The position numbers were made by a program, and so were the translations under genes. From positions 885,970 to 949,969 of the forward strand of contig NZ_CP087263.1 of the NCBI RefSeq assembly GCF_020923435.1: a stretch of DNA of 64,000 nucleotides, in the 5' to 3' direction. This document shows, piece by piece, positions 38,707 through 57,417 of the stretch. Below the pieces are notes generated by a model, which made no database searches, was not told the origin of the DNA, and worked only from the letters and a program-made list of their open reading frames with translations. The stretch comes from Brevibacillus humidisoli. GTDB taxonomy: Bacteria > Bacillota > Bacilli > Brevibacillales > Brevibacillaceae. Within the stretch, counting starts at the first letter, position 1. Each line of letters opens with the position of its first letter.

Positions 38707-39477
38707 GTGTTGCACCTGTCAAAGGAATTTTCCTGGTTTGTGAGTCAGCAGTCGAAACAGCCGCCCAAGCTTCGGCTCTTCTGTTTCCCCTATGCCGGGG
38801 GTGGAAGTGCTGTATATCAGGGGTGGCAGGAAGAATTGCCACCCGAGATCCAATTGCTTGCTGCCCAGCTGCCGGGACGTGAAAAACGCTTCACCGAACC
38901 AGCTTGTCATTCGCTAGACGAGTTGATCGCAGGTCTGTCAAAAGCGATCATTCCCTATCTCGACACACCCGTTGCCTTCTTCGGACACAGCATGGGAGCA
39001 CTCATCGCCTATGAGCTGGCTCGTGAACTAGCAGAGAGATACGACACGCATCCCGTGCATCTTTTCGTTTCTGCGAAAGCAGCTCCCCAGATCGCGCAGA
39101 CAGAGCCACCGGTCTACAATCTCCCCCATCAAGCATTTATACAGAAGCTCTACACCCTGAACGGAACCCCAAAAGAAGTACTTGAAAATCAGGAATTGAT
39201 GGAACTGTACGAACCAATCTTGCGGGCAGACTTTGAAGTGTGCGACACCTATTGTTTTCGTCCGGGATTACGCTTGGACTGCCCCATTTCAATCTTTGGC
39301 GGTTTGCAGGACGGGGAAATACCGGTGGCAGACTTGGCGGCCTGGGAAGAGTTGGTGGCCAGGTCGGGCACTGTCCGCATGTATGAGGGAGACCATTTTT
39401 TCCTTCATAAACGGTATAAAGAGATCGTGCAGATGATCGTGAAAGATCTTTCAGTAAGCATAGGTGTGAGACGATGA
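38707..39477 (+). CDS. type II thioesterase (alpha/beta hydrolase, editing TE of PKS/NRPS pathways)
   Basis: 256 aa. GHSMGALIAYELAREL nucleophile elbow. C-terminal GDHFF. N-terminal LFCFPYAGGGS, as in SrfAD/GrsT-type TEII. GTG start after GAGGAGG. Confidence 0.85.
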   Translation: MLHLSKEFSWFVSQQSKQPPKLRLFCFPYAGGGSAVYQGWQEELPPEIQLLAAQLPGREKRFTEPACHSLDELIAGLSKAIIPYLDTPVAFFGHSMGALIAYELARELAERYDTHPVHLFVSAKAAPQIAQTEPPVYNLPHQAFIQKLYTLNGTPKEVLENQELMELYEPILRADFEVCDTYCFRPGLRLDCPISIFGGLQDGEIPVADLAAWEELVARSGTVRMYEGDHFFLHKRYKEIVQMIVKDLSVSIGVRR

Positions 39478-39900
39478 AGGAGCGGATCGGAATCAGTACG
39501 GAGATGAAGATGCAGCCGTGATGACTCCGGAGCTGGCCCTATGAATCAAAGAAGCAGAATGCAAAGGATTTCGATCTCGTCTCACAGCAAGTTGCGTGAG
39601 TGGAGTGAATCGGATGGTTCTTTTTGTCACTACCATTTCTTACTTGGGGGTGTGTTTATGCCCCCATGTAGACGATTGACAACGGACTTACCCTCACGTC
39701 AAACCACTATTGTTCGGCAAGCGGCACAATGCTGCGCAGAAATACAGACATCCAACGATTTCTAGAAGTAGTATTGAATTCACCTTTTAGAAGATACGGG
39801 AGAATCCAACTCAAGAAAGGTAGGTGAACCTAAAACCTAAAAGAGATTTCCGAACGTACGTTTGATAAGATATGGAAAAGAAAAGCCCCATACAGGGCCA

Positions 39901-40971
39901 CTAAATAAATTTTTTGGTTACTTCGATGAGTTTATCTTTATGGTTCTGTATATCCGAAACCCGATCAATACTTACGGTACTTTTGCTGTCATCATTAAAC
40001 TGGATATATTTGTTGGATCCACTCAAACCTAACCGACAGATCCACTTTCGGATGTTATTATCCAGCAGTACATTAAAGTAACTAAGATTATCTCTATAAA
40101 ACACCCGTTCCGGTTCAACATTGTCCTTTAACAACAACTTTACCGTAACATAACCCTCGATTTCCTCTTCCGTGGTAACAATTTGTGGTTCGTTCTTGAT
40201 TTCCTCGTTGTCGTTCGATGAATCTTCTTCGCTTACTGAGTCGGGTTCTGTGTTCGCAAGGGCGGCTTTAAGCTTGTCGTTAAGCATATCGCTAACAAAC
40301 TGTTTGAGTGACTTTTTGACTACTCCATTAAACTTCTCTAACACCTGCTTTGTTTTCTTGCCGGGATAGATATCAGATAGGATAAAAGAAACGAAATCAT
40401 CAGTTGGGTTTTCCCACTGTTTTGCTAGAAACTGCTTGATTTCGCTGGTATACTTAAGCTCCGATGCGGTGGTCAAGATGTTTTCAATATCAAAGTTTTC
40501 TTTCCGGAACTTGTATAGTTCATTGATCTGATTCTCTCGAATCTCTAACAAGTTAAACTCGAAAAACGGCGTTTTATCCATTTTATTTTGTTCTTCCAAA
40601 TCTGTATAAAAACGATAATGTATTCCGTTCGTTAGGATGGCAAACTTTGCCTTGGTTGTTCCAAAATACCGAAATAATTGCGAATCATGCTTATTAATTG
40701 TCTCGTTTATTGATTTCGCTTCGACTAGGATGACGGGTTCACCGTCTCTCAAGATTGCGTAATCGACTTTCTCCCCTTTCTTAATTCCCACATCAGCTAC
40801 ATACTCAGGCAAAAATTCTTCTGGATTGAAAATATCGTAGTTTAAAGCTTGAAAAAAGGGCATGATAATAGAAGTCTTAGTAGCTTCTTCTGTGGCTATG
40901 TTGTTTTTAATCTTCTGGACCCGTTTAGATAACGTCTTGATTACTTCAGGGAAATTACCCACATTGAACAC
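39901..40971 (-). CDS. PD-(D/E)xK nuclease, type I restriction enzyme HsdR N-terminal domain-like stand-alone protein
   Basis: N-terminus ATEEATKTSIIMPFFQALNYD...VDYAILRDGEPVILVEAKS (D...E.K motif), as at the start of HsdR / Mrr-like nucleases. Acidic Ser/Glu/Asp-rich middle. Lies in a low-GC stretch. Confidence 0.5.
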   Translation of the reverse strand: MFNVGNFPEVIKTLSKRVQKIKNNIATEEATKTSIIMPFFQALNYDIFNPEEFLPEYVADVGIKKGEKVDYAILRDGEPVILVEAKSINETINKHDSQLFRYFGTTKAKFAILTNGIHYRFYTDLEEQNKMDKTPFFEFNLLEIRENQINELYKFRKENFDIENILTTASELKYTSEIKQFLAKQWENPTDDFVSFILSDIYPGKKTKQVLEKFNGVVKKSLKQFVSDMLNDKLKAALANTEPDSVSEEDSSNDNEEIKNEPQIVTTEEEIEGYVTVKLLLKDNVEPERVFYRDNLSYFNVLLDNNIRKWICRLGLSGSNKYIQFNDDSKSTVSIDRVSDIQNHKDKLIEVTKKFI

Positions 40972-41284
40972 CCCTTCTGTTATTTATGTTACTGGCTGTC
41001 CTTACGGGTTCGATCAAGCCAGCATGTTCCTCTTATATTCAGTACGCCTCTTTCAGGAGCGCCGATGCAAGTTTTAAGATTGAACCGCCAAATGATAGAC
41101 AAGATTTTTTGTTCAAATACACACATTACCAACTTTATGATAACAGTTTTTACATCATGCCTGAAGCAATATTTTATGAGACAGGTGAGTAAATCAGCAC
41201 CTAAACAGGTGTATTTTTCATTAAAAAGAACCACTCTAGGCGGTTCTTTATTCGAGTTTACGAATCTCCATATCTCAGGTGCAA

Positions 41285-41815
41285 CTAATTCGTTTTTGAG
41301 AGGATCTCAATCCCTACGTCAATATGTTTCTCTTTCCCCATGAAGTTCACCAAGATATTGGCCCTGTTTTTCCGTTTGTCTACCTTGTTGATGATGCCTT
41401 CCAACCCCTGTAGGGGGCCGGATGTAATGATTACCTGTGATTTTTCAAGATAAACCCTTGAATAGTCGACGATCTCGCCATCACCGAGGAGTTGCAGGAT
41501 CGTCGCCATTTCTTGTTCATCAATTTTTCGATAATATGTTTCACTTGTATGAGAATATGCCTGGTTATGAACCACATAGTAGACTTTTGGAAGTTTTCTG
41601 ATTTTATAGAAAACAGCAGGATTCATGTTGGTTTTAATAAGCACGTAACCTGGGAACATTTTCCTTGCAACGTGATGAACCCTGCCTGCTTTTCGTTCAG
41701 GAAGCCTTCTTTTCGGCACGATCGAATATAGCGAGGGTTCATCGAAGTGCAGTCGGAGAAGTTTTTGAACCGTCTCTTCTTTACCGGTCTGGACAAACAG
41801 TGCATACCAATCCAT
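41285..41815 (-). CDS. loaP: NusG-family paralog (NGN + KOW domains), LoaP-like processive antiterminator associated with PKS clusters
   Basis: MDWYALFVQTGKEETVQKL (NGN start) ... ITSGPLQGLEGIINKVDKRKNRANILVNFMGKEKHIDV (KOW). 177 aa from ATG 41815. Sits in the low-GC island directly upstream of the trans-AT PKS genes. Confidence 0.65.
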   Translation of the reverse strand: MDWYALFVQTGKEETVQKLLRLHFDEPSLYSIVPKRRLPERKAGRVHHVARKMFPGYVLIKTNMNPAVFYKIRKLPKVYYVVHNQAYSHTSETYYRKIDEQEMATILQLLGDGEIVDYSRVYLEKSQVIITSGPLQGLEGIINKVDKRKNRANILVNFMGKEKHIDVGIEILSKTN

Positions 41816-42353
41816 GATTACGGTATCCCTCCCAGTTAGGAAATTTGCAAGTTTCCGACTTCCAACCAACCTGTTGAGGACCCCTAAGCGTATCCAGAAG
41901 CAAGAGTTATTACTAAATGATGGTGTTTTGTTGTCATTGTACATATTGACGTTTGCAAAATGTGTCGAAATATGTTGATTTTTTAAAAAATATCGATTAT
42001 TGACAAATTGTAAATAATGGAGTTATCATTGTATTCGCCAACGCTTGTTATAGATTGTGATTACCTCTAAATTGAGGTAGGAATAGGAATCCATCTCAAA
42101 TGAAATGTGTGAGTAGTACAATCCTTAAGTAAATCCAATTGATGTTTCGGCTCATTGGAAGCGCTTAACGGATCATACAAAACAGGTTCGGTAGTCTGTA
42201 TGCTTGCAGATGACATGGGAAGGGTATGTTCGGAGGCGTTTTTCATTTTATATAATCTTCGTTCAGGCGCTGCATGGCCTCGGTGTTTAGCCGAGGTTTT
42301 TTTATACTTGGAAGGTAAGGTTCGGAAGAGATCATATTCTGAGGAGGCCCTAT

Positions 42354-43145
42354 ATGACGATGATCACGAAACGTTTGCCTGAAACGTCGCTTGCTGAATT
42401 GGTTTTTACAGGAACAGATATGACGTATAGGGGATCAATGTGCGTATGTTATGCCCCTTCCCTTGCTTCGTATTTTGAGACCGTGACATTCCTTCATCCA
42501 AAAGAGCTGGAGTATTATTGCACGCTTACTTATGAGCGGCGAGCGAAAAGCTACCTGGCCGGTAGATATGCGGCTAAACGATCCGTTTCGTTCTTTACGC
42601 GAGAAGAACATCTTGATCAGGTCTTAATTGAACAGGGGATTCTGCAACAGCCAATAGTAGTCCACCCCAATCGTCTCAATGCTCAAGTGAGTATCACCCA
42701 TTGCGATGATCTCGCAGCCGCCGTTTCTTTTCCGGAAGCACTCCCTCTGGGAATTGATATAGAAAGAATAAGGACCGATCATACAGAGGTGTTGGAAACA
42801 CAAATGACTGATAGAGAAAAAGAGTTGATCAAACGGCTGCCTTATTCCATCGAAACAACACTTACTATTTTATGGACGGCCAAGGAAGCGCTGTCTAAAA
42901 TCCTCAGAACGGGTCTAACAACGCCCTTTACACTGTTTGAAATCAGTGCAATGGATGTATTGAACAGTAGTACCCGCAGCTATTTCACTTCGTTTCCTCA
43001 GTATTATACCGATTCATATCTCTTTGATCATTATGTATGTTCGATCACATACCCGAAAAAAACATCGTTGGCTGTGGATGCTGTGGGCCGGTTGCTCGCC
43101 GATATCGAACGGATCATCGCCAGAAAAGCGATGATGCCTGTGTAA
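42354..43145 (+). CDS. Sfp-type 4'-phosphopantetheinyl transferase
   Basis: PPTase motifs GIDIERI and WTAKEALSKIL. RBS GAGGAGG 6 nt before ATG. Confidence 0.8.
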   Translation: MTMITKRLPETSLAELVFTGTDMTYRGSMCVCYAPSLASYFETVTFLHPKELEYYCTLTYERRAKSYLAGRYAAKRSVSFFTREEHLDQVLIEQGILQQPIVVHPNRLNAQVSITHCDDLAAAVSFPEALPLGIDIERIRTDHTEVLETQMTDREKELIKRLPYSIETTLTILWTAKEALSKILRTGLTTPFTLFEISAMDVLNSSTRSYFTSFPQYYTDSYLFDHYVCSITYPKKTSLAVDAVGRLLADIERIIARKAMMPV

Positions 43146-43300
43146 GCGCGACAGGGATGGTACAGAAACGGATGTGTGTATTCTTCCTAACAATACAGCA
43201 TCTGTCCGATTGCTCATGAAATCATCGAGTAATCGGATTTTCTATTTCTAGCGGAAAGACGGCGTTTGATCGCCTCCTATATACCCATCCTGCTATCTTT

Positions 43301-46300
43301 ATGGTTCAGTATGCGTTAGCGCAGCTATTGCTGGCTAGTGGCATCCGGCCAGATTATGTCCTGGGGACCAGTATGGGGGAGTTTGTTTCGGCGGCGGTTG
43401 CCGAGATCATGAGTGCAGAAGAATTATTAGAAATGCTCCTTCAACAAGCCATCCTGATAGAAGGTCATTGTCAAAAAGGAGCGATGGCAGCCGTTCTCCA
43501 CAATCCTTCTTTATATGAGGAAGAACCTTTTTTGCACGAAGCGAGTGATTTGGTGTCAGTGAATGGAGATTCACACTTTGTCATTTCGGGAGAGAGCGAG
43601 CCATTACGAAACATTGGGCAATTTTTAAAAGGCAAGGGGATCGCCTCTCAAACTTTACCGGTCTCCTATGCTTTTCATTCCTCACGAATCGATCCAGCCG
43701 AGCAGCATTACAGGGAGTATCTGCAGGGAAAGCAGTTCAAGCGGCCGACCATTCCTTTTGTATCTGGCCTCTACGGTGAGATCTTGGAGGAACTCCCAAG
43801 GGATTACTTCTGGGATGTAGTCCGAAAGCCGATCCAGTTTTCAAAAGCGGTCCAGGCACTGGAGCGAAACCAGCATCATACGTATCTGGATTTAGGTCCG
43901 GCGGGAACGCTTGCCAATGGTGTAAAACGAATCACAAGCCTAGGGTCCGATTCCGCAGCACATGCGATCCTGTCTCCGTTCCATCAGGATCAAAAGCATT
44001 TGCAACAGGTAAAGGACGTATGTTCGAAGAACCGGCTCAAACCGAGCAGAAAGGCAAGTAGAAAGATGACCACATATCTGTTCCCGGGGCAGGGCTCCCA
44101 ACATAAAGGAATGGGAGGGGATCTCTTTGATCAGTTTACGGAACTGACGGTTAAAGCGGACGAGCTCTTGGGTTACTCCATCAAGGAATTGTGTTTGGAT
44201 GACCCCAATCAGCAGTTAGGCAAAACCCAATATACCCAACCTGCTCTATATGTGGTCAATGCCCTTACCTATCTGAAAACAATCAAGGAAACAGGAAAAA
44301 AACCAGACTATGTTGCCGGGCATAGTTTGGGGGAATACAACGCTTTGTTTGCTGCAGGTGCGTTTGATTTCGAGACGGGGTTGCGATTGGTGATAAGAAG
44401 AGGAGAACTGATGAGCCATGCGACGGGCGGAGGTATGGCTGCCGTGATCGGCCTTAGCGGGGAGCAGGTGAACCGCGTTTTAGTGGAAAATGGGCTGAGC
44501 GGCATCGATATCGCCAACCACAATGCCCCCTCGCAGATCGTCATTGCCGGGCAAAAAGACGATATTGTTCATGCGAAGCCGTTCTTCGAGGCGGCAGGAG
44601 CCGCCATGTACATTCCGCTAAACGTGAGTGGAGCTTTTCATTCCCGGTATATGAGCGATGCAGAAAAACATTTTGCAGAATATGTAGACAGCTTTACATT
44701 TTCTCCTCTCACGATCCCCGTTATCGCAAACATTTCGGCCAAACCCTATAAACAGGCCGACATACCCCAATATTTGATCCAACAAATCACCAACCCTGTC
44801 AAATGGACGGATAGCATCAGGTATCTGATGGGCCTTGGCGAGATGGAGTTTATAGAAATCGGGCCCAGAAACGTGCTGACCAAGTTGGTCGATACCATCC
44901 GAAAAGAAGCCGAACCACTGGTCGTTACCGATGCGGAAAACGTGGACGTAGAAGACGAAAAGCGAGTAGAGGGAGAACGAGAACTTACCGGCGCCTCGCT
45001 TGGAGACGAACAGTTTAAAAAGGACTATAACCTGACCTATGCGTATGTGGCAGGAGCGATGTACAAGGGAATCGCTTCCGAAAGAATGGTGGTTAAGCTC
45101 GGGAAAGCAGGCATGCTGGGATTTTACGGCACGGCCGGCATGAGTGCAGAGCGGATTGAGAGAGCGATCCGATCGATCCAACGGGAACTGAAAAACGGAG
45201 AAGCATATGGAATGAATCTGACTCACAACCCTACCCACCCACAACTGGAAGAAGAACTGATAGACCTCTTTCTGACCCACGATGTGAGGATCATCGAGGC
45301 GTCAGCATTTATGGAGATTACCCCTGCGTTGATCCGCTATCGCGCTCAGGGATTGAGCAGGGGTGTTGGGATGGCTGCGCTACGCAACCGGATCATTGCA
45401 AAAATATCACGACCTGAGGCAGCTGAAGCCTTTTTAAGCCCGGCACCTAAGCATATAGTCGAAAAAATGGTAGGGAAGGATCAGCTCAAGCTGGATGAAG
45501 CGGAATGGCTGCGCACAGTTCCTATGGCCGATGATGTCATCGTAGAGGCGGATTCCGGCTGGCACACGGAACAAGCCTCCCCCTATGCGCTGATACCGGC
45601 GATCATCAAACTGCGGGACGAGATGATGAGAAAGTATGGGTACTCCAAGAAGATCAGGATCGGAGCAGCAGGTGGAATCGGAACGCCAGAAGCGGCCGTT
45701 GCCGCTCTGATGCTGGGTGCTGATTTCTTAGTAACGGGTTCTATCAATCAATGCACGGTTGAGGCGGATACCAGCGATGCAGTCAAAGACTTGCTGGAGC
45801 AGGCCAAAGTGCAGGACACCTGTTATGCGCCAGACGCTGAGTTGTTTGAATTGGGAGCCAAGGTTCAGGTGCTGAGAAAAGGCGTATTTTTTCCCGCACG
45901 AGCAAATAAATTGTACGATCTTTACCGGCAATACAACACGCTGGACGAAATCGACGAAAATACGAAAAAGACAATAGAGGAAAAATATTTACATCGGCGT
46001 TTTGAAGAGGCCTATGAGGAACTGAAAGCCTCCCTGCCATCGCTGGAAATCGAAAGGGCGGAACGAAATCCCAAACAGAAGATGGCCTTGCTGTTCAAAT
46101 GGTATTTTAATTACGCTACCCGTTTGGCGATGGATGGCAGTCCCAGGCATCAGGTGAATTATCAGATTCACTGCGGTCCCGCGCTAGGTGCGTTTAATCA
46201 ATGGGTAAAGGGAACTTCTCTGGAGCATTGGAGAAACCGGCATGTCGATCAGATTGCTGAAAAGCTGATGAATGAGACTGCGCAATTGATGAACCAGCGT

Positions 46301-46363
46301 TTCCTGTCTGTCTACAAGGATAAAGCTTCCGGGAAGACTGCGATGGGGGTGACTGCGATATGA
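43301..46363 (+). CDS. trans-AT PKS tri-domain protein: N-truncated AT/acyl-hydrolase-like domain (GTSMGE), malonyl-CoA:ACP transacylase (GHSLGE), FMN-dependent trans-enoyl reductase (PksE-like)
   Basis: Domain 1 begins mid-domain (..THPAIFMVQYALAQLLLASGIRPDYVLGTSMGEF), with in-frame stops only 84 nt upstream and no FPGQGSQ segment. Domain 2 is complete (LFPGQGSQHKGMG...GHSLGEY...GAFHS). Domain 3 is nitronate-monooxygenase/PfaD-like (AYVAGAMYKGIASERMVVKLGKAGMLGFYGTAG...). Confidence 0.85.
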   Translation: MVQYALAQLLLASGIRPDYVLGTSMGEFVSAAVAEIMSAEELLEMLLQQAILIEGHCQKGAMAAVLHNPSLYEEEPFLHEASDLVSVNGDSHFVISGESEPLRNIGQFLKGKGIASQTLPVSYAFHSSRIDPAEQHYREYLQGKQFKRPTIPFVSGLYGEILEELPRDYFWDVVRKPIQFSKAVQALERNQHHTYLDLGPAGTLANGVKRITSLGSDSAAHAILSPFHQDQKHLQQVKDVCSKNRLKPSRKASRKMTTYLFPGQGSQHKGMGGDLFDQFTELTVKADELLGYSIKELCLDDPNQQLGKTQYTQPALYVVNALTYLKTIKETGKKPDYVAGHSLGEYNALFAAGAFDFETGLRLVIRRGELMSHATGGGMAAVIGLSGEQVNRVLVENGLSGIDIANHNAPSQIVIAGQKDDIVHAKPFFEAAGAAMYIPLNVSGAFHSRYMSDAEKHFAEYVDSFTFSPLTIPVIANISAKPYKQADIPQYLIQQITNPVKWTDSIRYLMGLGEMEFIEIGPRNVLTKLVDTIRKEAEPLVVTDAENVDVEDEKRVEGERELTGASLGDEQFKKDYNLTYAYVAGAMYKGIASERMVVKLGKAGMLGFYGTAGMSAERIERAIRSIQRELKNGEAYGMNLTHNPTHPQLEEELIDLFLTHDVRIIEASAFMEITPALIRYRAQGLSRGVGMAALRNRIIAKISRPEAAEAFLSPAPKHIVEKMVGKDQLKLDEAEWLRTVPMADDVIVEADSGWHTEQASPYALIPAIIKLRDEMMRKYGYSKKIRIGAAGGIGTPEAAVAALMLGADFLVTGSINQCTVEADTSDAVKDLLEQAKVQDTCYAPDAELFELGAKVQVLRKGVFFPARANKLYDLYRQYNTLDEIDENTKKTIEEKYLHRRFEEAYEELKASLPSLEIERAERNPKQKMALLFKWYFNYATRLAMDGSPRHQVNYQIHCGPALGAFNQWVKGTSLEHWRNRHVDQIAEKLMNETAQLMNQRFLSVYKDKASGKTAMGVTAI

Positions 46364-48112
46364 GATTGGAATTGGCGGCATACCCATCCACAATCCAATT
46401 CACATACTCTCCCCTGCTTTTCGTTCATGGGTCGTTCCATGGGGCGTGGTGCTGGAAGGAACAGTTTCTCCCCTATTTTTCTGCAAAAGGTTTCCCCTCC
46501 TACGCGCTTAGTTTCCGGGGACACGGGGAAAGCGAGAGCATGGAACAGCTTCAAACATGTTCCTTGCGTGACTATGTGGACGACGTACTGCAAGCGATAC
46601 AGCTCATCCAGAACAAACCCGTTTTGATCGGCCATTCTATGGGAGCGGCCGTGGTTCAAAAGATCCTTCATCTGCATCCGGACAAAATCAAAGCGGCTGT
46701 TCTGATGTCCCCCGTTCCACCGAATGGGATGTGGAAAGACGTGCTGCGGTTACCATGGGGAGGGGGTCTCTACCCTACTTCAGTTGACCAAAGTATTGCT
46801 GCAGTTTCAATCAAAAATGCTGCTCCCACTCCTGGAGGGAGAGGAAACAAACCCCCATATCAGGATCGAAAACTCTCCTTTTTACTTTCAAACAACCACT
46901 CAGAAGTGGGAACCACCTGCGATCACAATCAATCACCAATCGTTCCCTCTACCGCGGCGGGCTACGGTATCGTCTTTTGGTGCGGGCGGCAGCCTTGGTC
47001 ACCTGATCCTGGAGGAACACGTACCAGACCATTTTGAAAAGCAAACCCTTGACACTTACTATATCCCCCTATCTGCCAGAACCTCCGATCAACTACGACG
47101 GACGATCAAGGCATACATTCAATTTTTTACGCAGTAACGGCGGTTTTTTGCGAAAGGAGGGGACCACACACTCTTCCCTATCATGTTTACGCTTTGTACG
47201 GGACGAACAGCCTTTTCAGAACGGGTAGTCTTTATCGTGGATCGGCTTGAAACGTTGGTGGAACATTTCCATCGCTATCTAAGGGGCGAACGTCACCCGG
47301 ATATTATTGCAAAAGATGCGACGAGCCCGCTCCCAGCAGCAAGCGATCAGGATCAGGCGCGAATCCAAAGCTGTCTCGAAAAACAGGCATGGCATGATAT
47401 CGCCAAACAATGGGTTCATGGAATCGATATTTCTTGGGAATCGTTCTTTCACCCATTTCATGTCCGGCGAATCCCTTTGCCAACCTATTGTTTTGAACAA
47501 CAATCGTTTCCGATCCCCAAACCGGCATCGCCTATACTGGATCACAACCACTCGATGACAAAAACGAGGACGGTAATCGGTGATTTGGCCCAAATGCCTA
47601 GAGACGTAGACGGACTTGACACGGCACATGGCACCACTTCTATGGCAGGCAATGGCAACCGGCAATCCGATCATGTTGTCCAAACAGGTCATGCAGTGGA
47701 CGGGCTGTTCCGGGACGTATTTGCGAAGATCATCAACATTCCAGCCGATCACATCGAGCTGTCTGCGCCACTGGACCAATACGGCTTTGACTCGACGATG
47801 GTTATTTCCGTTGCCAACGAACTGGAAAACTACTTTGGTACGGTACCGAAAACACTCTTTTTTGAGTGTCAGACGATCCAAGAGGTAATCGATTATTTTG
47901 TCCAGGAATATCGGGATAAGATCCCGATGATCATGCGGGAAAAAGATAGGGATCCAGTCAATCACCCGCTTCGCTCTGCTGTTGCGCAGTCCGCACGAAG
48001 CGAGGGACAGGATCAACGGGAGCAAGCTGATGACGAAGATATGATTGAAGATCTTACCCAGGCCATCTTATCCGATCGAATCTCTGCAGAAATGATCCTG
48101 AAAAAACTGTAG
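46360..48112 (+). pseudogene. relic PKS module: alpha/beta-hydrolase N-terminal fragment fused to a KS C-terminal fragment, then an in-frame TAA, post-KS linker and ACP
   Basis: 46360-~46750: hydrolase fragment (HGSFHGAWCW...GHSMGAAV...LMSPVPPNG) lacking the Asp/His half. From about 46724 in another frame: KS C-terminal part from the second-His region (GYHGEGVSTLLQLTKVLLQ...SPFYFQ...PRRATVSSFGAGGS.GHLILEE). TAA at 47135-47137 interrupts the LSARTSDQLRRTIKAYIQFF-TQ linker in frame. Then MFTLCTGRTAF...LPTYCFEQQ and an ACP (YGFDSTMVISVANELE). Confidence 0.6.
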
Positions 48113-48131
48113 ACAGAAAGGTGGATAACCC

Positions 48132-51100
48132 GTGAAACAAGACGTGATCAGATCCGTTCTGAGAAAGGTAAAAGAGGGTTCCATCCCCAAGGAAGCAGGT
48201 GTAGAGCTGTGTTATGAAATCAAAAACATGAACGAAAGAGCCTCAACACAAACAGCCGCTTCCAAAGATATTGCGATTATCGGTTTGGCGGGACGCTACC
48301 CGCAAGCAGCCAATATCGATGAGTTCTGGCAAAACCTAAAAAAAGGGAAGGATTGTATCTCGGAAATACCGCCTGATCGCTGGGAGTGGCAGCAATACTT
48401 TCACCCTGGCCGATATGAGGCTGGTGATGAGGGAAAAAGCTACAGCAAATGGGGCGGTTTTCTTGATCATGTTGATCGATTTGATCCTCTCTTTTTTTCC
48501 GTTTCTCCGCGGGAGGCAGAAGTAATGGATCCTCAGGAGCGTTTGTTTCTTGAAGTGGCCTGGGAAGTGATGGAGGACGCGGGATACACCAGGAATATGT
48601 TCCAAACTAGTCAGGCGGATGACGAAATGAACAGAGTGGGAGTTTTTGTCGGGGCAACATGGCAAGAATACCAACTCTATTCCGGTTTTTTTGACGGAAA
48701 CAATGATGCGATTTTATCGACAAATGCCCACAACATCGCCAATCGGGTATCCTATTTTTTTAACTTCAAGGGATCCAGTCTAACTGTAGATACCGCCTGT
48801 TCATCCTCACTGACGGCGATTCATCTAGCCTGCGAAAGCTTGCTGCACGGGGTCAATAGGATGGCGATCGCCGGTGGTGTCAATCTTTCGCTTCATCCAA
48901 ACAAATACCTGTACTTATCAAAGTTCCAGTTCGTATCGAGCAAAGGCCGTTGTGAAAGTTTTGGCAAAGGGGGTGACGGCTATGTGCCGGGCGAAGGGGT
49001 GGGAGCGGTGCTGCTGAAACCCCTGTCGCAAGCGATTGCCGACGGGGACCAGATTTATGGCGTTATCAAGGCCACCGCAATCAATCACGGAGGAAAAACG
49101 AACGGCTACACCGTTCCGAACCCCCGTGCCCAGGCCAGTGTGATTGGAAAAGCTTTAAAAGAAGCGGGGATCGACCCGAGGGCGATCAGTTATATAGAAG
49201 CACACGGCACCGGGACTTCTCTCGGGGATCCGATTGAAATAACAGGCTTGACCAAAGCTTTTCAGGAGTTTACGAACGATAAACAGTTTTGTGCGATCGG
49301 ATCGGTCAAGTCCAACATCGGGCATGGCGAGAGTGCGGCCGGCATCGCCGGGGTGACCAAGGTTTTGCTCCAGCTCAAACATCGCCAGTTAGTGCCTTCT
49401 CTCCACTCCCGGATACTGAATCCGAACATCGACTTCCGCACGACCCCTTTTTTCGTCCAGCAGGAGGTGGCCGAGTGGAAACGGCCGCTGCTTGGGATCA
49501 ATGGCGATACCAGAGAATATCCTCGGATCGCCGGGATATCGTCCTTTGGTGCAGGAGGGTCGAATGCCCATGTGGTGATCGAGGAGTACATCCCACCGGA
49601 GCGGAACAGACCTCAGATTGCGATTAGCGCACAGAACCCGGCGCTGATCGTATTATCCGCGAAGGATGAAGAGCGGCTCCGCGAGCAGGTGGAGCGGTTG
49701 TTAAGCGCCGTCGACAGGGAGCGTTTCTCTGATGCCAGTCTGGCTGATATCGCCTACACACTCCAGGTGGGACGCGAGGCGATGGACCAACGCCTGGCGG
49801 TGATCGTTGGTTCGATCAAGGAACTGGAGGAGAAGCTGACGCGGCACCTGGAGGGGCAGGAGGGGATAGAAGAGCTGTATCGCGGCACAGGTGAAAGCCG
49901 GCAAAGAGATCGCCGCATTATTTGCGGCGGATGAGGATATGGAAACCATGATGGATGCCTGGGTGTCCAAAGGAAAGTACGCAAAAATTCTTGAGCTTTG
50001 GGTGAAGGGCGTTCCGATTGATGGCACAAGCTGTACGGGGACCTCAGCCCTCGCCGCATCAGTTTGCCGTCCTATCCCTTTGCCAGAGAACGCTGTTGGT
50101 TTCCGCAGCAGGCAAGCAAGGTTACAGGAAGCAGCATGGAAGCGGGCTCCGCCCCGACCGCCTCGATTCATCCGCTGCTGCATCAAAATACGTCGACCAT
50201 TTCTCATTTGAGATTTCGAACAACTTTTACGGGCCAAGAGTTTTTCCTGGCGGATCATATGGTGAACGGCCAGCGGATCCTACCCGGTGTCGCCTATCTG
50301 GAGATGGTACGGGCGGCAGTAGAACAAGTAGTGGAAGCCGGCAAAGAAGATTATGAGATTCAACTGAAAAACGTGGTTTGGGTGCGACCGATTTCCGTGG
50401 AAGAAAAGCCAGTCCAGATACAGATCAGACTCTTCGCGGAGGAGAACGGCGAGATTGCCTACGAAATCTGCAGCGGGCCCGGCGAGGAGGATGGAGATCC
50501 TGTTATTCACAGCCAAGGAACGGCGGTGCTTGGTTCCCCAGCCGAAGAAGCACCAACCCTGGATCTGAATGCCTTGCAAGCGGAGTGTAATCAAAGTGTT
50601 CTTCAGTCCAGCCAATGCTACGATACCTTTCGGGCAGCCGGGGTTGATTACGGCCCAGCATTCCAGGGGATTGAGCGGGTATTGGTCGGACAGGGGCAGC
50701 TACTGGTGAGGCTCTCTTTGCCGACTTCGATTGTCGCTACAAAGGATCAGTTTGTCCTGCATCCTTGTTTACTCGATTCTGCCGTGCAAGGATCGGCAGG
50801 TTTTCTGTTAAGCTCCGCAGATACGGCGGGCACCGGCAAGCCAGCGCTGGCCTTTTCTTTGCAAGAACTGGAGATATTCGGCGATTGTACTCCCACGATG
50901 TGGGCGCTGATTCGATACAGCGACGGCAGTGCGGCAGGAGAACAAGTACAAAAGCTGGATATCGATCTGTGTTATGACCAGGGGAATATTTGTGTGCGGA
51001 TGAGGCGATTTGCATCGAGGGTGTTGGATCCGGGGCTTCAAACCAGCACAGTATCGCACGAGGTCCCTTCCGAGACCGTGGCTGCTCCCCTTGTGGGAAA

Positions 51101-52686
51101 TGTGATGCTCACCCCCGTATGGGATGTGGTATCGGTTAAGTGGGATCAGACCGTTCCCACTCCCACCGAACATGTCGTGATTGTCGGCGGAACGGAAGAG
51201 AATAGGCGCACGTGCAAACGACGATATCCCGGCGCACGTACCCTGGAGATGGAATCCGAGGATACAGTTGAAGTGATCGCCAAAAAAATAGCTGGTCTTG
51301 GCCGTATCGATCAGATCGTATGGATTGCTCCCTACCATGCACTGAATTCGCTTGCAGAGGAAGCTGTGCTGGAAGAGCAGAAACAAGGGGTACTCCTGAT
51401 GTTTCGGGTGGTAAAAGCGCTGCTCCTTGCCGGATATGGCAGCAAGCAGATGGAGTGGAGTGTGATTACCACACAGACCCAGCCGATCCATAAGCACGAG
51501 ATGGTGAACCCGACCCACTCCAGTCTGCACGGGTTTGTTGGTTCGATGACCAAGGAATATCCAAACTGGAAGATCCGACTGGTTGATCTGCAGGCGTATT
51601 GTGATTGGCCGGTGCCTGAACTCTTCCATCTGCCCACCGATCCGCAGGGAAACGCCTGGGTCTATCGAGATCGGGAATGGTATCGACAACATTTAATCCC
51701 CGTACGTTACACTCCATCTGATGATCTGACATTGTATCGACAGGGGGGAGTATATGTAGTGATTGGAGGTGCGGGCGGCATTGGCGAAGCTTGGAGTGCC
51801 TATATGATTGGTACCTATCAGGCTCAGATCGTTTGGCTGGGCAGACGCCAGATAGACGAGACGATTCAGCACAAGATGGGCAAGCTGGCTGTTATGGGAG
51901 CCTGCTCCCTGCTACATCTCCGCCGATGCCTCCGATCAAGAAGCACTGCTCCATGCTTATGAAGAAGTGAAGCAGCGGTACGGAAAGATAAACGGGGTGG
52001 TACATTCTGCAGTGGGCGTCTTGGATCATAGCTTGGCCAAGATGGAAGAGGAACGATTCCGGGCCGGGCTCTCAGCAAAAGTAGACGTCAGTGTGCGGAT
52101 GGCTCAGGTATTTGCAAAGGAACCGCTCGATTTTGTCTTGTTCTTCTCTTCTTTTGGCGCTTTTGGCAAAGGACTTGGTCAAAGCAGCTACGCTTCCGGC
52201 TGCACATTTGGCGATCTGTTTGCCCACCAACTTTCTCACGAATGGCCTTGCGCAGTGAAAGTGATGAACTGGGGATACTGGGATGGTGTGGGCATCGCAA
52301 GCGTGATTCCCGATACGCTTAAGAATCGGCTGGCACAAGCCGGCATCGGATCGATTGAGCCATCCGATGGGATGCAGGCACTGGAAGTCTTGCTAACCGG
52401 ACCAGTGGATCAACTGGCGTTCATGAAGACGACAAAGCCCTTGGAGATGGAGGGACTCCAAGCGGGGGAAGAGATATCGATTCACCGGGAAAGGCATGAA
52501 TCGAGTCTGGAAAACATCAAGCAGATGCTTCCGTCCCTCGCCTTGCCTGGTGAAGTTGCCGCAGCGTCTCCTCGAGGGGCAACGTCTCCTCCCGGGTTGG
52601 AGACAGACCGTTTTCATTTTTCGGACGCTTCGCTCGTCGACGACCAAGACAATGCCGGTACAGAAGGATCAGGAGGTGCGTGGTAA
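48132..52686 (+). CDS. trans-AT PKS module KS-DH-KR, reading frame broken by three 1-nt indels (about 49895, 50022, 51900)
   Basis: N-terminal docking region. KS with DTACSSSL, EAHGTGTSLGDPIE, NIGHGESAAG (ORF 48132..49934). Linker continues in +1 (ORF 49891..50211, KAGKEIAALFAADEDME...WVKGVPID) and back in frame 0 (ORF 50064..51962) with DH (HPLLH...LADHMVNGQRILPGVAYLEM) and KR (VVIGGAGGIGEA). KR C-terminal part in ORF 51967..52686 (YISADASDQEALL in a third frame, KQRYGKINGVVHSA...). Confidence 0.8.
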
Positions 52687-55600
52687 ATGAAGAAGGTAGA
52701 TGAGCTTCTCTGTCGGCTGCTAGGGGGACAACTGCAGTCTATCGGGATCTGCACAGCAACACCTTCCATCATCGCTGAGCAAAAAGCAAAATCCGGGCTG
52801 CTGCCACTATACGATCGATGGCTGGAAGAAAGTTTGACCGTACTGGCACGGAACGGTTATCTCAGCTATGACGGCCAGTCATGCACGGTATTGGATACGA
52901 CGACGGTCGATATGGATCAGTTGTGGAGAGAGTGGGATCAAAAGAAGATGGCATGGCTGAGAGATTCCAGTTTGAAAGCGCACCTCGTCTTAGTTGAGAC
53001 AACGATGCGGGCACTGCCGGAGATCCTGACGGGGAAAGTATCGGCCACAGAGATCATGTTTCCCCATTCCTCGATGAAACTGGTCGAAGGGGTATACAAA
53101 AACAACCCGACATCTGATTATTTTAATGAAGTGCTGGCAAATACGGTTGCTTCCTATGTTCGAGATCGGTTAAAACGTGACCCTTCTGCCAGGATTCGAA
53201 TCATCGAAATCGGGGCAGGCACCGGAGGGACCAGTGCCATGGTCTTCCAAAAACTCCGCTCCTATCGGGAGTCAATCGAAGAATATTGCTATACCGATCT
53301 CTCCCAATCGTTTCTCCTGTTTGCCGAAAAAGAGTACGGCTCAGAAAATCCTTATCTGACGTATAAACGATTAAACGTAGAGCAGCCCATCAGTGGACAA
53401 GGGATCCGTGAGGGTGGATACGATCTGGTGATTGCAGCCAATGTCCTTCATGCGACCAAAAATATTCGACATACCTTGCGCAACGCCAAAGCGCTTCTGC
53501 GGAACAACGGCTTGCTTCTGCTAAATGAGATCAGCATGCCTTCCATATTTGCTCACCTCACCTTCGGGCTTTTGGAGGGATGGTGGTTGTATGAAGATGC
53601 AGGATTACGTATTCCGGGCAGTCCTGGATTGTCTCCCGAAACCTGGAAAAAGGTACTAAAAAGCGAAGGGTTTCCGTCCGTCTTATTTCCCGCCCAGCAA
53701 GCCCATGATTTGGGACAGCAGATTATTATTGCCCAAAGCGATGGCATCGTCCGGCAAACAAAAGAGCAGAAGACCAGTACGGTGCATCGAAAAAAACAGA
53801 ACCGTCCGGAGGTGCAGCAAGCGAAACCACCTGCACAAAAAATAGCATCAACCGATTCCGAAGCAATCTCACAGGATCTGCTGCGGGAGAAGAGTATCGA
53901 GTATATCAAAACAGTGGTCGGTGAAGTACTAAAGATTCCAAGTCATAAGATCGATTCTGCTGAGCATTTGGAAACATACGGGGTTGACTCGATTATCACG
54001 GTTCAGATCACCAACCACTTACAAGAAGTTTTCGATGACATTAGCAGTACACTGCTGTTTGAATACCAAACGATTGACGCATTGACAGAGCACCTGATGC
54101 AAACAAAGCAGGACGCGTTGGTCAAACTGGTAGGATTGCCGCAAGGGAACCTGGATCGGCAGATTGTAAGAGAAAAGGCGATCCCTGTGCGTCGATCTCC
54201 ACAGCGCCCCGACCTCAGCGTAAGAAAAGCAGGACAGATGCATCCATTGCCTACTCCCAGAACGAACGGATCGCAGCCGCCACGCTCCCGAGAACCGATT
54301 GCGATCATTGGGATGAGTGGACGTTACCCACAGGCGAAAAACCTCGACGAGTACTGGGAAAACCTGAAAGCAGGCAAAGATTGTATTACCGAGATTCCGG
54401 AAGAGCGTTGGCCGCTTGACGGATTCTACCACCCGGATCCCGATGAGGCGGTGGAACAGGGGAAAAGCTACAGCAAATGGGGTGGCTTTGTAGAAGGTTT
54501 TGCCGATTTTGATCCCCTCTTTTTCCATATCTCTCCCCGAGAAGCGATCAGTATCGATCCCCAGGAAAGATTATTTATCCAATCCTGCTGGGAAGTGTTG
54601 GAGGATGCGGGATACACCAGAGAACAGCTTGCCATGCAGTACAATCGGAGAGTTGGTGTGTTCGTAGGGATCACCAAAACGGGTTTTGATTTATATGGCC
54701 CTGAATTGTGGAGCCAAGGTGAGAAACTGTTTCCCCATACCTCGTTTAGCTCAGTGGCCAACCGGATTTCCTATCTATTGGATTTGCAGGCGCCCAGTAT
54801 GCCGATCGATACGATGTGTTCTTCGTCGTTAACCGCCATTCATCAAGCTTGCGAACACATTTACCGTGGAGAATGTGAAATGGCCATTGCCGGCGGAGTC
54901 AATCTGTATCTTCATCCTTCCAGCTATATCGGACTCTGTTCGAGGCACATGCTGTCCACGACGAATCGATCTGCAGCTTTTGGTAAAGGAGGGGACGGTT
55001 TTGTGCCCGGTGAAGGAGTGGGGTGTGTGCTGCTCAAACCGCTTTCCCAAGCGGAGCTAGATGGCGACCACATCTATGCGGTCATCGTAGGAAGCCAGAT
55101 CAACCATAATGGCAAGACCAACGGGTATATGGTATCCAATCCGAATGCCCAGACAGACTTATTGCTGGAAAACTTCAAAAAATCGGGAATCGATCCGCGA
55201 ACGATCAGTTATGTGGAAGCGGCTGCATTTGGATCAAACTTGGGAGATGCGATCGAAATAAATGCGCTCAAGAAGGCATTTGCACAGTACACAGAGGACG
55301 AACATTTTTGTGCGATCGGTTCCGTCAAGGCAAACCTCGGGCACCTGGAAGCAGCGTCGGGAATGTCTCAATTGACAAAAGTGGTTTGGCAGCTGCGAAA
55401 TCGGGAATTGGTGCCGTCCATCCATGCTGAATCTCTAAACCCAAATATATGTTTTGAGAACAGTCCATTTTACTTGTCAAAAGAACGACAGGAGTGGAAG
55501 CGGCCCATCCTCACCATCAATGGGGAAGAACGAGAGATTCCACGCCGGGCAACGATTAGCTCCTTTGGGGCGGGGGGAACAAATGCCCATTTAATTGTGG

Positions 55601-57417
55601 AGGAATATATTCCTGTACAGGAAGAACAGGCCTCGACCAGTCCTGCAGCCCGACCGCAGATTATCGTCTTATCAGCCAGAAATGCTGATCGCTTGCGGGA
55701 GATCGTTCGACAAATACTCCAGTTCCTTGAGCAAAGAGAGAAGATCTCACTGCCCAATCTCGCCTATACGCTGCAAGTCGGGCGGGAAGCGATGGCGTTC
55801 CGGCTAGCCATTGTCGCAAGCAGTAGAGAAGAACTGATCCAGGAACTTAGGGAGTACTTGGGTGAGACAGTGGACAACAAAAAAGAGAACGCTGTCCCTA
55901 TTTTCCAAGGGGATAAAGAGAGCAATGAAGAGATGAACCATCTCCTCTCCGGCCAAACAGGGGAGATGTTGGTGAACATCCTGCTGGAAGAGAACAGACC
56001 GGAAAAACTGGCGCAACTGTGGGTGCAGGGTGTCAATATCCCTTGGACATCTCTGTACCACAGCCAAAGCGTTCGCAAGATTCGCTTACCCACCTATCCC
56101 TTTGAAAAACAGCAGTACTGGATTCGCGCAAAAATGATAGATCAACAGCAGCTTGCCCCTACAACGCAAACCATACCGGACGAACAATGGCAAAAGCGAG
56201 CAGCAGCTGATGCAAAGATGTTCGTCAAAGAGATACTGTGTTCGATACTGGAACTGAAGATGGAAGAGGTCCAAATGGATGTACCGTTCTCAGACTATGG
56301 AATGGACTCTGTCATTTTGATGGATCTGTATCGAAACTTGAAAAAGCATATTCCCTTGTTGGATGTTGCAGCATTGAAGCAGTGTGTTACATTACAGGAG
56401 ATTGTACAACTGATTGAAGAGCAGGCAGATGAAAAGACGGTTCGCGCGATGGTTGCACGAGATGATGGGGAGAAACCCCGATATAGCAAGAGCATGCTAT
56501 CTGTCGGGCGAAGGGAAAGTCCCGCCACCGTGACGCAGCCTGAGCAGGATATGGAAGAACAACGGCAACAGATTTTGCGTCGGATGACCAAGCTCTCGAA
56601 AACAGCATGGCACAAGCGTGGCTTGATCGGGAAAGGGACCACCGTTCCCCGGTTTCAAACCTTAGACGTGATGCTTGATGAACGAAACTGCATCTGGATA
56701 TTTTTCAAAACCAAAGTGATCGGAGAACAGACGGCAGCAGACATCCTTCATTTGCATACCTTTATTCAACAAAAGGTGGAGCTGGAACAGGTGCCGATCT
56801 TGTATTTTAGCCACTATGGTTCCCATTTTTTGTTGGGCGGTGACCGCTTGTTTTTTGCAGAAAGCAACCTTGATGAAAAAGGACAGGAGAAGTTTTTGGA
56901 ATGGTTTGAAGCATGCAAGCCGATCTTTACGGATCATCTCTCAGAGAACCATCCCTTGCGAATCGCCGTCTGCGCCGGTACGGCTCAGGGAGGAGGATTT
57001 GAGTATCTGCTTTCCTGCGATTTTCAGTTTGTTTTGCCCCAGATCAAGCTGGGAGTGCCGGAGATTAAATCAAATTTGTACGCAGGAATGGGCGGCTTGA
57101 GCTACTTGGCGTCACAGGTAGGATTAGCCAGGGCGAAACTGCTTAATCTGACAGGCGGACTGATCTACGGACACCAGGCGCACGAAATGGGACTGATCAG
57201 TCATGTAACGGCAAATCCCTTTACCGATGCCTATGATTTCTATGACGTGATACCGAACATAAAACTGGCCAAACACCTCAATTATCGATTGAACCAACAG
57301 TACCATGAGTTGAGAAACAGGGACTTGAATGATTGGATACAGGTTACACAAACGTTTGTCAAAGAAGGGTATCAACATATACTGGATGATTACAAAATGT
57401 TTAAGGTGGAGCGGTAG
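52687..57417 (+). CDS. trans-AT PKS module: C-methyltransferase - ACP - KS0 (non-elongating) - ACP - enoyl-CoA hydratase/crotonase domain
   Basis: 1576 aa. SAM-binding IIEIGAGTGGTS. ACP1 YGVDSIIT. KS with Cys (DTMCSSSL) and second His (NLGHLEAASG), but the HGTGT His is replaced (VEAAAFGSNLGDAIE, 55216-55239), so KS0. ACP2 YGMDSVIL. C-terminal crotonase fold (IAVCAGTAQGGGFEYLLSCDF, LGVPEIKSNLYAGMGG). Confidence 0.85.
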   Translation: MKKVDELLCRLLGGQLQSIGICTATPSIIAEQKAKSGLLPLYDRWLEESLTVLARNGYLSYDGQSCTVLDTTTVDMDQLWREWDQKKMAWLRDSSLKAHLVLVETTMRALPEILTGKVSATEIMFPHSSMKLVEGVYKNNPTSDYFNEVLANTVASYVRDRLKRDPSARIRIIEIGAGTGGTSAMVFQKLRSYRESIEEYCYTDLSQSFLLFAEKEYGSENPYLTYKRLNVEQPISGQGIREGGYDLVIAANVLHATKNIRHTLRNAKALLRNNGLLLLNEISMPSIFAHLTFGLLEGWWLYEDAGLRIPGSPGLSPETWKKVLKSEGFPSVLFPAQQAHDLGQQIIIAQSDGIVRQTKEQKTSTVHRKKQNRPEVQQAKPPAQKIASTDSEAISQDLLREKSIEYIKTVVGEVLKIPSHKIDSAEHLETYGVDSIITVQITNHLQEVFDDISSTLLFEYQTIDALTEHLMQTKQDALVKLVGLPQGNLDRQIVREKAIPVRRSPQRPDLSVRKAGQMHPLPTPRTNGSQPPRSREPIAIIGMSGRYPQAKNLDEYWENLKAGKDCITEIPEERWPLDGFYHPDPDEAVEQGKSYSKWGGFVEGFADFDPLFFHISPREAISIDPQERLFIQSCWEVLEDAGYTREQLAMQYNRRVGVFVGITKTGFDLYGPELWSQGEKLFPHTSFSSVANRISYLLDLQAPSMPIDTMCSSSLTAIHQACEHIYRGECEMAIAGGVNLYLHPSSYIGLCSRHMLSTTNRSAAFGKGGDGFVPGEGVGCVLLKPLSQAELDGDHIYAVIVGSQINHNGKTNGYMVSNPNAQTDLLLENFKKSGIDPRTISYVEAAAFGSNLGDAIEINALKKAFAQYTEDEHFCAIGSVKANLGHLEAASGMSQLTKVVWQLRNRELVPSIHAESLNPNICFENSPFYLSKERQEWKRPILTINGEEREIPRRATISSFGAGGTNAHLIVEEYIPVQEEQASTSPAARPQIIVLSARNADRLREIVRQILQFLEQREKISLPNLAYTLQVGREAMAFRLAIVASSREELIQELREYLGETVDNKKENAVPIFQGDKESNEEMNHLLSGQTGEMLVNILLEENRPEKLAQLWVQGVNIPWTSLYHSQSVRKIRLPTYPFEKQQYWIRAKMIDQQQLAPTTQTIPDEQWQKRAAADAKMFVKEILCSILELKMEEVQMDVPFSDYGMDSVILMDLYRNLKKHIPLLDVAALKQCVTLQEIVQLIEEQADEKTVRAMVARDDGEKPRYSKSMLSVGRRESPATVTQPEQDMEEQRQQILRRMTKLSKTAWHKRGLIGKGTTVPRFQTLDVMLDERNCIWIFFKTKVIGEQTAADILHLHTFIQQKVELEQVPILYFSHYGSHFLLGGDRLFFAESNLDEKGQEKFLEWFEACKPIFTDHLSENHPLRIAVCAGTAQGGGFEYLLSCDFQFVLPQIKLGVPEIKSNLYAGMGGLSYLASQVGLARAKLLNLTGGLIYGHQAHEMGLISHVTANPFTDAYDFYDVIPNIKLAKHLNYRLNQQYHELRNRDLNDWIQVTQTFVKEGYQHILDDYKMFKVER

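Follow-up and report, generated by a model that had tools for sequence, protein, structure and literature searches.

Gene content and layout of the locus

We analyzed a 64,000-nucleotide stretch of the Brevibacillus humidisoli genome (RefSeq assembly GCF_020923435.1, contig NZ_CP087263.1, positions 885,970 to 949,969; hereafter the window, in which position 1 is the first letter). The subject of the analysis is loaP, a gene for an antiterminator of the NusG family, together with a polyketide synthase (PKS) operon of the trans-acyltransferase (trans-AT) type that begins about 538 bp away on the opposite strand (Table 1). Based on the evidence given below, this is probably a canonical LoaP antitermination module attached to the remains of a trans-AT PKS operon. 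A first-pass annotation of the same DNA had regarded this neighborhood as the hallmark of LoaP, and the adjacency to trans-AT PKS genes bears this out.

The LoaP protein and the difficidin (dfn) operon of B. velezensis FZB42, our main point of comparison, were reportedly described by Goodson in 2017 and by Elghondakly in 2021 and 2024. The same system is the subject of Jermain 2025 (PMC12691694). Literature searches for LoaP plus Brevibacillus and for B. humidisoli found no papers.

For comparison we collected 80 LoaP loci, one genome per species, with B. humidisoli itself not among them. A KS or AT-AT-ER gene occurs within 10 kb of loaP in 37 of the 80. Among these PKS-linked loci, loaP is divergent from the PKS genes in 16, comes first on the same strand in 18, has the PKS genes upstream on the same strand in two and is convergent with them in one. 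The dfn layout of B. velezensis is divergent. The closest relatives of the window locus (Thermoflavimicrobium dichotomicum, B. cereus BAG5X1-1, Paenibacillus sp. KS-LC4 and the Logan contig SRR15070237_2697576, here L089) likewise place loaP opposite a leader that is followed by a PPTase gene and an AT-AT-ER gene. Because the closest relatives and dfn share the arrangement, the opposite-strand layout, remarked on in the first-pass annotation, is the norm, being one of two standard layouts, and not a peculiarity.

All genes of the first-pass list, namely those for a type II thioesterase (TEII), an HSDR_N-like nuclease, an NGN + KOW protein, a phosphopantetheinyl transferase (PPTase), AT-AT-ER, KS-DH-KR and MT-ACP-KS0-ACP-ECH, were recovered with Pfam and NCBIfam models at the coordinates given there. 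The list had missed a hydrolase fragment, a KS remnant and an open reading frame (ORF) for an ACP, which lie between the AT-AT-ER and KS-DH-KR genes. The PPTase, encoded by the first gene of the operon, is 60-63% identical to the product of the first post-leader gene in T. dichotomicum and L089. The KS domains are followed by RhiE/CurL-type linkers, there is no in-line AT and AT-AT-ER is a separate gene, which is a trans-AT organization. AT2 keeps its GHSLG motif and the ER is intact. The first KS retains the Cys-His-His triad (DTACSSS, HGTGT, NIGH), the second is a KS0 with AAFGS in place of HGTGT, and both ACP serines are present. The reported absence of an HMG-CoA synthase holds, in that neither this enzyme nor an in-line TE was found among the larger window ORFs that were scanned (the scan did not cover every ORF). 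There is a single crotonase domain, a hydratase-type one with both Glu residues, which does not agree with a beta-branching (HMGS) cassette. NCBI has B. humidisoli proteins with 100% identity to the 1576-aa PKS product and to the 1020-aa AT-AT-ER. Exact NCBI protein records exist for the truncated AT-AT-ER, the half hydrolase and the C-terminal KR piece, and none for the KS or DH ORFs as delimited here.

Table 1 Features of the loaP and PKS region in window positions
Feature	Position	Strand	Remarks
Type II thioesterase (TEII)	38707-39477	+	Pfam Thioesterase, 158.7 bits
PD-(D/E)xK-type endonuclease, solitary (HSDR_N)	39901-40971	minus	Pfam HSDR_N; between TEII gene and loaP
Terminator-like hairpin and T-run, weak, putative	41224-41249	minus	Just past loaP stop codon; read from sequence
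loaP	41285-41815	minus	176 aa, intact, NGN + KOW
Sigma-A-type promoter, predicted	42000-42029	+	TTGACA, 18-nt spacer, TATCAT
LoaP-binding UNCG hairpin, predicted	42131-42163, core 42135-42158	+	CCAAUUGAUGUUUCGGCUCAUUGG; UUCG loop 42146-42149
Conserved leader block	42207-42229	+	CAGAUGACAUGGGAAGGGUAUGU; Shine-Dalgarno (SD)-like GGGA-rich element and AUG
Leader intrinsic terminator, predicted	42276-42303	+	9-bp stem, 5-nt loop, U7
Sfp-type PPTase, first operon gene	42354-43145	+	Pfam ACPS
Deletion 1 junction	43146-43250		FAD enzyme gene, MBL gene and AT1 codons 1-63 gone
Truncated AT1-AT2-ER	43301-46363	+	1020 aa; PfaD-type ER, 654 bits
Alpha/beta hydrolase, N-terminal half	46360-46857	+	GHSMG present; ORF continues out of register to 47037
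KS C-terminal remnant and linker	46724-47137, then stop codon	+	VSSFGAGGSLGHLILEE motif; KAsynt_C_assoc, 33 bits
ACP ORF	47183-48112	+	PP-binding, 51 bits
KS-DH-KR, three indels	48132-52686	+	KS 48132-49934; DH and KR N-terminal part 50064-51962; KR C-terminal part 51967-52686
MT-ACP-KS0-ACP-crotonase (ECH), last PKS gene	52687-57417	+	Pfam; appears intact
Operon-end terminator	57466-57517	+	Perfect 19-bp stem and U-run; terminator scan

Identity of the antiterminator

The 176-aa loaP product scores 58.1 bits with the Pfam NusG model and 22.7 bits with KOW. Based on the NCBIfam models, it reaches 216.9 bits with LoaP (NF033641, cutoff 125) and stays below the cutoffs for NusG (TIGR00922, 83.9 against 135.7), UpxY (46.1 against 100) and RfaH (37.5 against 144.5). 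The subfamily comparison proposed in the first-pass annotation was thereby made, and its proposal that this NusG paralog is LoaP is upheld: the model scores contradict a grouping with housekeeping NusG, so the LoaP assignment stands. In a search of the PDB the best match was 8f5g (E 3e-25), with E. coli-type NusG chains at E ~1e-11.

In B. velezensis LoaP, residues E40, R41 and I143 are needed for RNA binding and for difficidin and macrolactin production (PMC12691694, the source of our list of RNA-contact residues). In an alignment with this protein, taken from the B. velezensis locus L013, the window LoaP keeps E40, R41 and I142. Judged by its sequence, the gene is a true LoaP and is already annotated as such at NCBI, where the entry "antiterminator LoaP [Brevibacillus humidisoli]" is 100% identical to it. 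The weak hairpin just past its stop codon was called by eye and was not scored in the terminator scan.

A predicted LoaP control leader upstream of the PKS genes

The control leader predicted in the 538-bp gap between loaP and the PPTase gene is new relative to the earlier annotation. By its predicted elements it is complete, with a promoter, an UNCG hairpin, a conserved block and a terminator. The promoter matches the consensus at 11 of 12 positions, the best in the region in a promoter scan, and in the leader alignment the relatives have an equivalent TTGACA promoter upstream of the hairpin.

The window hairpin closely matches the native dfn hairpin of L013, UCAAUCGCUGUUUCGGCACGUUG, located on the strand opposite to B. 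velezensis loaP and 370 nt upstream of that gene. The published hairpin oligo (Table S2 of PMC12691694) is synthetic and differs from this native sequence. By sequence pattern, 28 of the 80 LoaP loci contain the motif. In an alignment of 24 copies (A2), the 9-bp stem is paired in 97.2% of cells, with double-sided changes in six of the nine pairs and none of 500 shuffles as good, statistics that are somewhat favorable by construction given that the copies were gathered by sequence similarity. Registers slid along the alignment give only 25-50% pairing. The N of the UNCG loop varies among loci (U, A, G, C), as expected.

From this alignment we built a covariance model (R1), which scores the window hairpin at 41.4 bits (E 2e-9). 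It finds the hairpin in 42 of 83 LoaP loci, including loci outside the building set, nearly always within ~700 nt of loaP; the exceptions are L016, at ~1.8-2.2 kb, and L035, ~6.7 kb upstream. Within the 64-kb window, only the leader hairpin and one 20-bit match exceed 10 bits. The latter, at 35208-35237 on the minus strand (E 0.005; AAAUCCAAU, then a gap of three positions, then UGUUUCGGCAC), was judged to be chance because it has a broken stem and dissimilar flanks and is antisense in a well-conserved PTS EIIC-GAT permease gene. An Rfam scan of the whole window at gathering thresholds returned zero matches, also for the LoaP hairpin.

Across loci the LoaP hairpin is placed in three ways relative to loaP: in a divergent leader, directly after the loaP stop codon where loaP is the first gene, or ~130-370 nt upstream on the same strand. 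In the last case loaP itself would therefore be transcribed from a hairpin-bearing leader. L016 carries three tandem copies. In Brevibacillus dissolubilis (L003/L011), the LoaP is 63% identical to that of the window and its gene is convergent with the 3' end of a large nonribosomal peptide synthetase-PKS operon; no LoaP hairpin was detected within 10 kb of this locus, and the layout is atypical.

About 50-60 nt past the hairpin, all aligned leaders share the sequence AGAYGA..GGGRARRGUAUG (L009, L013, L015, L016, L038, L007 and L089). In most of them the block opens a short ORF of variable length; the B. cereus leader (L007) has no start codon there. Seven leaders were aligned over the block, and in L089 it was read by eye. 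In the window it is followed by a mini-ORF of nine codons at 42226-42255 (+), MFGGVFHFI. The block lies about midway between the hairpin and the leader terminator, and the dfn pause also maps about midway between these two elements (PMC12691694). The block could be a pause site or could specify a leader ORF or peptide.

The leader terminator has a predicted folding energy of -14.2 kcal/mol (z-score -3.5). The simple terminator finder that we used missed most of the relatives' leader terminators, including that of dfn.

Erosion of the PKS operon

We compared gene order with T. dichotomicum, Paenibacillus KS-LC4 and B. cereus BAG5X1-1 (loci L006, L007 and L008, of which L007 is that of B. cereus) and with the Logan contig L089, and mapped deletions by tblastn of the relatives' proteins onto the window. 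The conserved order is loaP, leader, PPTase, sometimes E1/E2, an FAD enzyme in some loci, a metallo-beta-lactamase (MBL), AT-AT-ER, an alpha/beta hydrolase and KS; in L007 and L089 an MT and an ACP come between the hydrolase and the KS. A 'creatininase' beside loaP in the T. dichotomicum assembly was considered as a shared flank and dropped, tblastn having shown no homology.

Two deletions interrupt this order in the window. At the first, tblastn finds zero trace of the FAD and MBL genes between the PPTase stop codon (43145) and 43251. Homology to AT1 starts at homologue residue 64, corresponding to window 43251-43265, so that the N-terminal GQGSQ is lost and the active-site Ser is residue 22, against ~97 in 96 of 120 homologues. 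The GTSMG motif in AT1 is normal for the AT-AT-ER family. The protein has 1020 aa, and the 118 other homologues listed have 1046-1312 aa except for a fragmented call of 865 aa (P0195). In the closest relative, the short-read contig L089, the homologue (2599-5755, 71% identity) is called in three pieces of 47, 68 and 865 aa and is broken within AT1; this AT1 may be degenerating independently, or there may be assembly errors.

The second deletion follows AT-AT-ER. The hydrolase aligns at 58-61% identity with the first 133 or 154 residues of homologues that are 268-275 residues long, and the rest, its C-terminal half, is absent in every frame by tblastn. The region of the KS remnant and the ACP ORF (46724-48112) aligns to residues ~350-680 of the relatives' KS at 25-30% identity. 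Compared with B. cereus and L089, the C-terminal half of the hydrolase, the MT, the ACP(s) and ~350 N-terminal KS residues (about two thirds, including the active-site Cys) are missing. Because the junction joins non-homologous sequences, this is not an assembly collapse of repeated modules. The ACP ORF that follows has a stop codon upstream and an SD sequence ~20 nt from its ATG, a poor ribosome-binding site.

The set of loading and early modules and accessory genes found in the syntenic relatives is thus incomplete here, and we regard the two deletions, as read from the alignments, as solid evidence that the PKS side has eroded. The decay noted in the first-pass annotation is therefore real, with two deletions that it did not describe; the frameshifts on which it relied may be assembly errors, as discussed below. 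A reading of the operon as laden with terminators was not supported, as 19 terminator-like sites were found inside it and 20 were expected in shuffled sequence.

Frameshifts in the window

The KS-DH-KR gene carries three indels: the first falls in the interval 49870-49899 (best guess ~49889), the second at 50021/50022, with GATGG in place of GATTGG, and the third at 51900. Three single-base corrections restore one open frame of 1517 aa in which the DH motif HxxxGxxxxP and the KR motif GxGxxG are present. Because the corrected frame is open with its motifs intact, the lesions are either very recent or artefacts.

Single-base frameshifts are also found outside the PKS genes. They affect a glcF-like Fer4+CCG gene (2660-2740, at a T7 run, ~2690), hemE (URO-D; 12380-12420, at a C5/G4 run, ~12400) and norB (qNOR; 16780-16800, at a T5 run, ~16790). 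As hemE belongs to the haem pathway, a broken copy is unlikely in a cultured isolate, so the assembly probably has indel errors, which suggests that these three frameshifts are assembly errors rather than pseudogenes. The PKS indels, unlike these, lie outside long homopolymers. They may nevertheless be assembly errors and cannot be called real.

Terminal gene, chain release and operon end

The product of the last PKS gene aligns end to end, at 60-62% identity and with a gap of ~85 residues in a linker, with proteins from Desulfocucumis palustris (P0047) and a Logan contig (P0048). In both, the orthologous terminal gene is followed by a PPTase gene and neither has a TE; in D. palustris, unrelated genes follow that PPTase gene. 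The scanned ORFs of the window PKS have no in-line TE, as the first-pass annotation stated, and a TEII gene lies 2.9 kb upstream. Because the two closest homologues of the last gene also have no TE, its absence is not a sign of decay. TEII homologues of 30-39% identity occur near loaP in ~10 other loci, and membership of the TEII gene in the cluster is uncertain.

The C-terminal crotonase domain (56557-57417) keeps both catalytic Glu residues and matches best the PRK08788 and RpfF models, both below cutoff. A role as a dehydrating or hydrolysing release domain is possible, as speculation; literature searches for RpfF-like release in trans-AT PKS found no papers.

The terminator past this gene has a predicted folding energy of -32.3 kcal/mol (z-score -8.2), and its 19-bp stem is far above the 9 +/- 2 bp usual in Bacillus terminators. 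Terminators with stems of more than 14 bp resist processive antitermination by conAn (PMC10325885). The long stem here may stop LoaP-modified polymerase before the TRAP transporter genes.

GC content and the neighboring nuclease

The first-pass annotation placed loaP and the nuclease together in a low-GC stretch of 35% against 53% elsewhere. The GC content is indeed lower, with figures of 36-40% over 39750-42250 and 49.5% for the whole window. For loaP itself it is 42.4%, against 49.9% in the flanks (a difference of -7.5 points). Across 68 LoaP loci the mean difference is -5.4 points (standard deviation 4.3). Because loaP is lower than its flanks in 85% of these loci, its low GC is not a sign of an island; it is a family trait.

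The HSDR_N gene has the lowest GC content here (37.6%). Its product matches phrog_4225, 'endonuclease', over its full length (453.6 bits), and plasmid homologues are annotated 'type I restriction endonuclease'. PADLOC gave zero matches for the nuclease and for an 81-aa ORF. The nuclease was found in none of the 80 other LoaP loci, and loaP is syntenic with the leader and the PPTase gene in the relatives. The two genes therefore do not form a single island, and the HSDR_N gene is an unrelated insertion of phage/plasmid type between the TEII gene and loaP.

Comparison with known systems

The locus resembles the dfn system in several respects. The window LoaP is 55% identical to that of B. velezensis with the RNA-contact residues conserved, its gene is divergent from a trans-AT PKS operon, the leader has an UNCG hairpin followed by an intrinsic terminator, and the first large gene is of the AT-AT-ER type (63% identical over the best segment). 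The window PKS operon is ~15 kb and eroded, whereas the dfn operon is much larger, at ~70 kb, and intact. The leaders also differ: the hairpin lies ~100 nt from the predicted start here and ~53 nt in dfn (PMC12691694), and a strong canonical U7 hairpin terminator takes the place of the large NusA-dependent dfnA terminator region.

The four uncharacterised loci of T. dichotomicum, B. cereus BAG5X1-1, Paenibacillus sp. KS-LC4 and the Logan contig share with the window the order of loaP, leader hairpin, PPTase, AT-AT-ER and hydrolase, with LoaP 55-68% and AT-AT-ER 58-71% identical. In them the FAD enzyme, the MBL, the MT, the ACP(s) and complete first KS modules are retained, and AT1 and the hydrolase are full-length; the window has lost all of this. 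D. palustris and the Logan contig with P0048 share a DH-KR gene followed by MT-ACP-KS0-ACP-crotonase at 58-64% identity, with an adjacent PPTase gene that follows the last PKS gene there and leads the operon in the window. Since these contigs end, only downstream parts of the clusters were compared.

Like RfaH, UpxY, TaA and ActX, LoaP has NGN and KOW domains, as is common to this group of operon-specific processive antiterminators of long biosynthetic operons, but the window LoaP scores far below the RfaH and UpxY model cutoffs. RfaH recruitment depends on the ops DNA element, and the protein acts against Rho, whereas LoaP is brought in by an RNA hairpin and opposes NusA at intrinsic terminators (PMC12691694).

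Interpretation

The regulatory half of the locus looks fully intact in its protein, RNA-contact residues, hairpin, promoter and terminator, as far as its sequence allows us to judge. We propose that the PKS transcript would start at the predicted promoter, divergent from loaP, and that ~100 nt into the leader the nascent RNA would fold into the UUCG-tetraloop hairpin. By analogy with dfn, LoaP would bind this hairpin and ride with RNA polymerase, and the modified polymerase would ignore the leader terminator. Transcription could then run for ~15 kb to the long-stem terminator past the last PKS gene. On the biosynthetic side, we infer that the assembly line has most likely lost the ability to make its original product, because the loading and early modules are missing.

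Several observations weigh against this interpretation, in addition to the way in which the covariation statistics were obtained. In the consensus register, pair 42143/42152 of the hairpin is a U-U mismatch, a variant shared with three other loci and for which an alternative A-U pair is possible. The segment just 5' of the hairpin (42120-42134, AUCCUUAAGUAAAU) has AUCCUUA against CACCUA or CACCUA(A/U)G in the relatives. In dfn, deletion of the 10 nt preceding the hairpin abolishes antitermination (PMC12691694), and by analogy the deviating segment might weaken the window element. The leader terminator is strong and canonical and that of dfnA is weak and NusA-dependent, so LoaP may bypass it less efficiently than in dfn. 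The remaining PKS genes have no nonsense mutations, KS1, the ACPs, AT2, the ER and the last gene look functional, and a shortened product is possible.

In one alternative the PKS is compact and functional, the frameshifts are assembly errors, and the truncated AT1 and the hydrolase are dispensable. LoaP would then switch on a one-module line of ACP, KS-DH-KR and MT-ACP-KS0-ACP-crotonase, and a small methyl-branched product would be released by the C-terminal crotonase or by TEII. We consider this unlikely. The homopolymer frameshifts in the glcF-like gene, hemE and norB, the open KS-DH-KR frame after three single-base corrections, the KS1 catalytic triad, the ACP serines, AT2, the full-length last gene and the intact regulatory module are all consistent with it, but the KS fragment lacks the active-site Cys, the hydrolase is reduced to one half, there is no loading module or starter-unit gene and the ACP ORF is poorly placed for translation. 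The PKS frameshifts, moreover, are not in long homopolymers. An intact regulator beside a damaged operon could also belong to a split system, in which LoaP is kept for another hairpin operon elsewhere, or in which an HMGS cassette or the modules lacking here reside at another place in the genome and complement this locus. Collinearity is not a requirement for trans-AT PKS genes. In B. velezensis, LoaP governs dfn and also mln, an operon far from it, through near-identical hairpins (PMC12691694), yet the 64-kb window has only one credible hairpin and the deletion junctions cut through domains, unlike in split clusters; this explanation seems quite unlikely to us.

That loaP and the nuclease are a recently acquired low-GC mobile island, beside the PKS genes by chance, is highly improbable. 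The GC content of the interval and the phage/plasmid endonuclease family of the nuclease would fit such an origin, but distant relatives have loaP, leader, PPTase and AT-AT-ER in the same order, the hairpin sits in the PKS leader, the GC deficit of loaP is shared by most loci and the nuclease is in no other LoaP locus. We noticed no integrase, no transposase and no repeats at the flanks, although repeats were not the object of a dedicated search. Thus, we favor the reading of a canonical LoaP module attached to an eroded trans-AT PKS operon.

Two more far-reaching versions can be imagined: LoaP may be becoming an orphan that is kept for a second, distant hairpin operon, and the PKS may be a minimised, LoaP-gated one-module system with a product like the diffusible signal factor (DSF). 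Taken jointly, we hold them to be decidedly improbable. If the PKS were so minimised, the ACP-fused RpfF-like crotonase would dehydrate and hydrolyse the chain, releasing a small cis-2-enoic, DSF-like molecule. Release by the crotonase, if true, would explain the absence of a TE in the two closest homologues of the terminal gene.

For genome mining, the locus advises caution on two counts. Frameshifts in this assembly should not be taken at face value, and among the ordinary named proteins at NCBI are the truncated AT-AT-ER and the half hydrolase. The leader elements match published dfn biology and the LoaP gene was already annotated; the remaining interest lies in an intact regulator next to an eroded target and in a TE-less, crotonase-terminated PKS family. 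The LoaP hairpin and leader layout of B. velezensis appear to hold almost unchanged in a Brevibacillus, in what would be a natural case of the LoaP regulatory half staying intact while the biosynthetic half erodes. The locus could be used as a compact native leader for LoaP-based expression tools and to test for LoaP targets beyond the neighboring operon.

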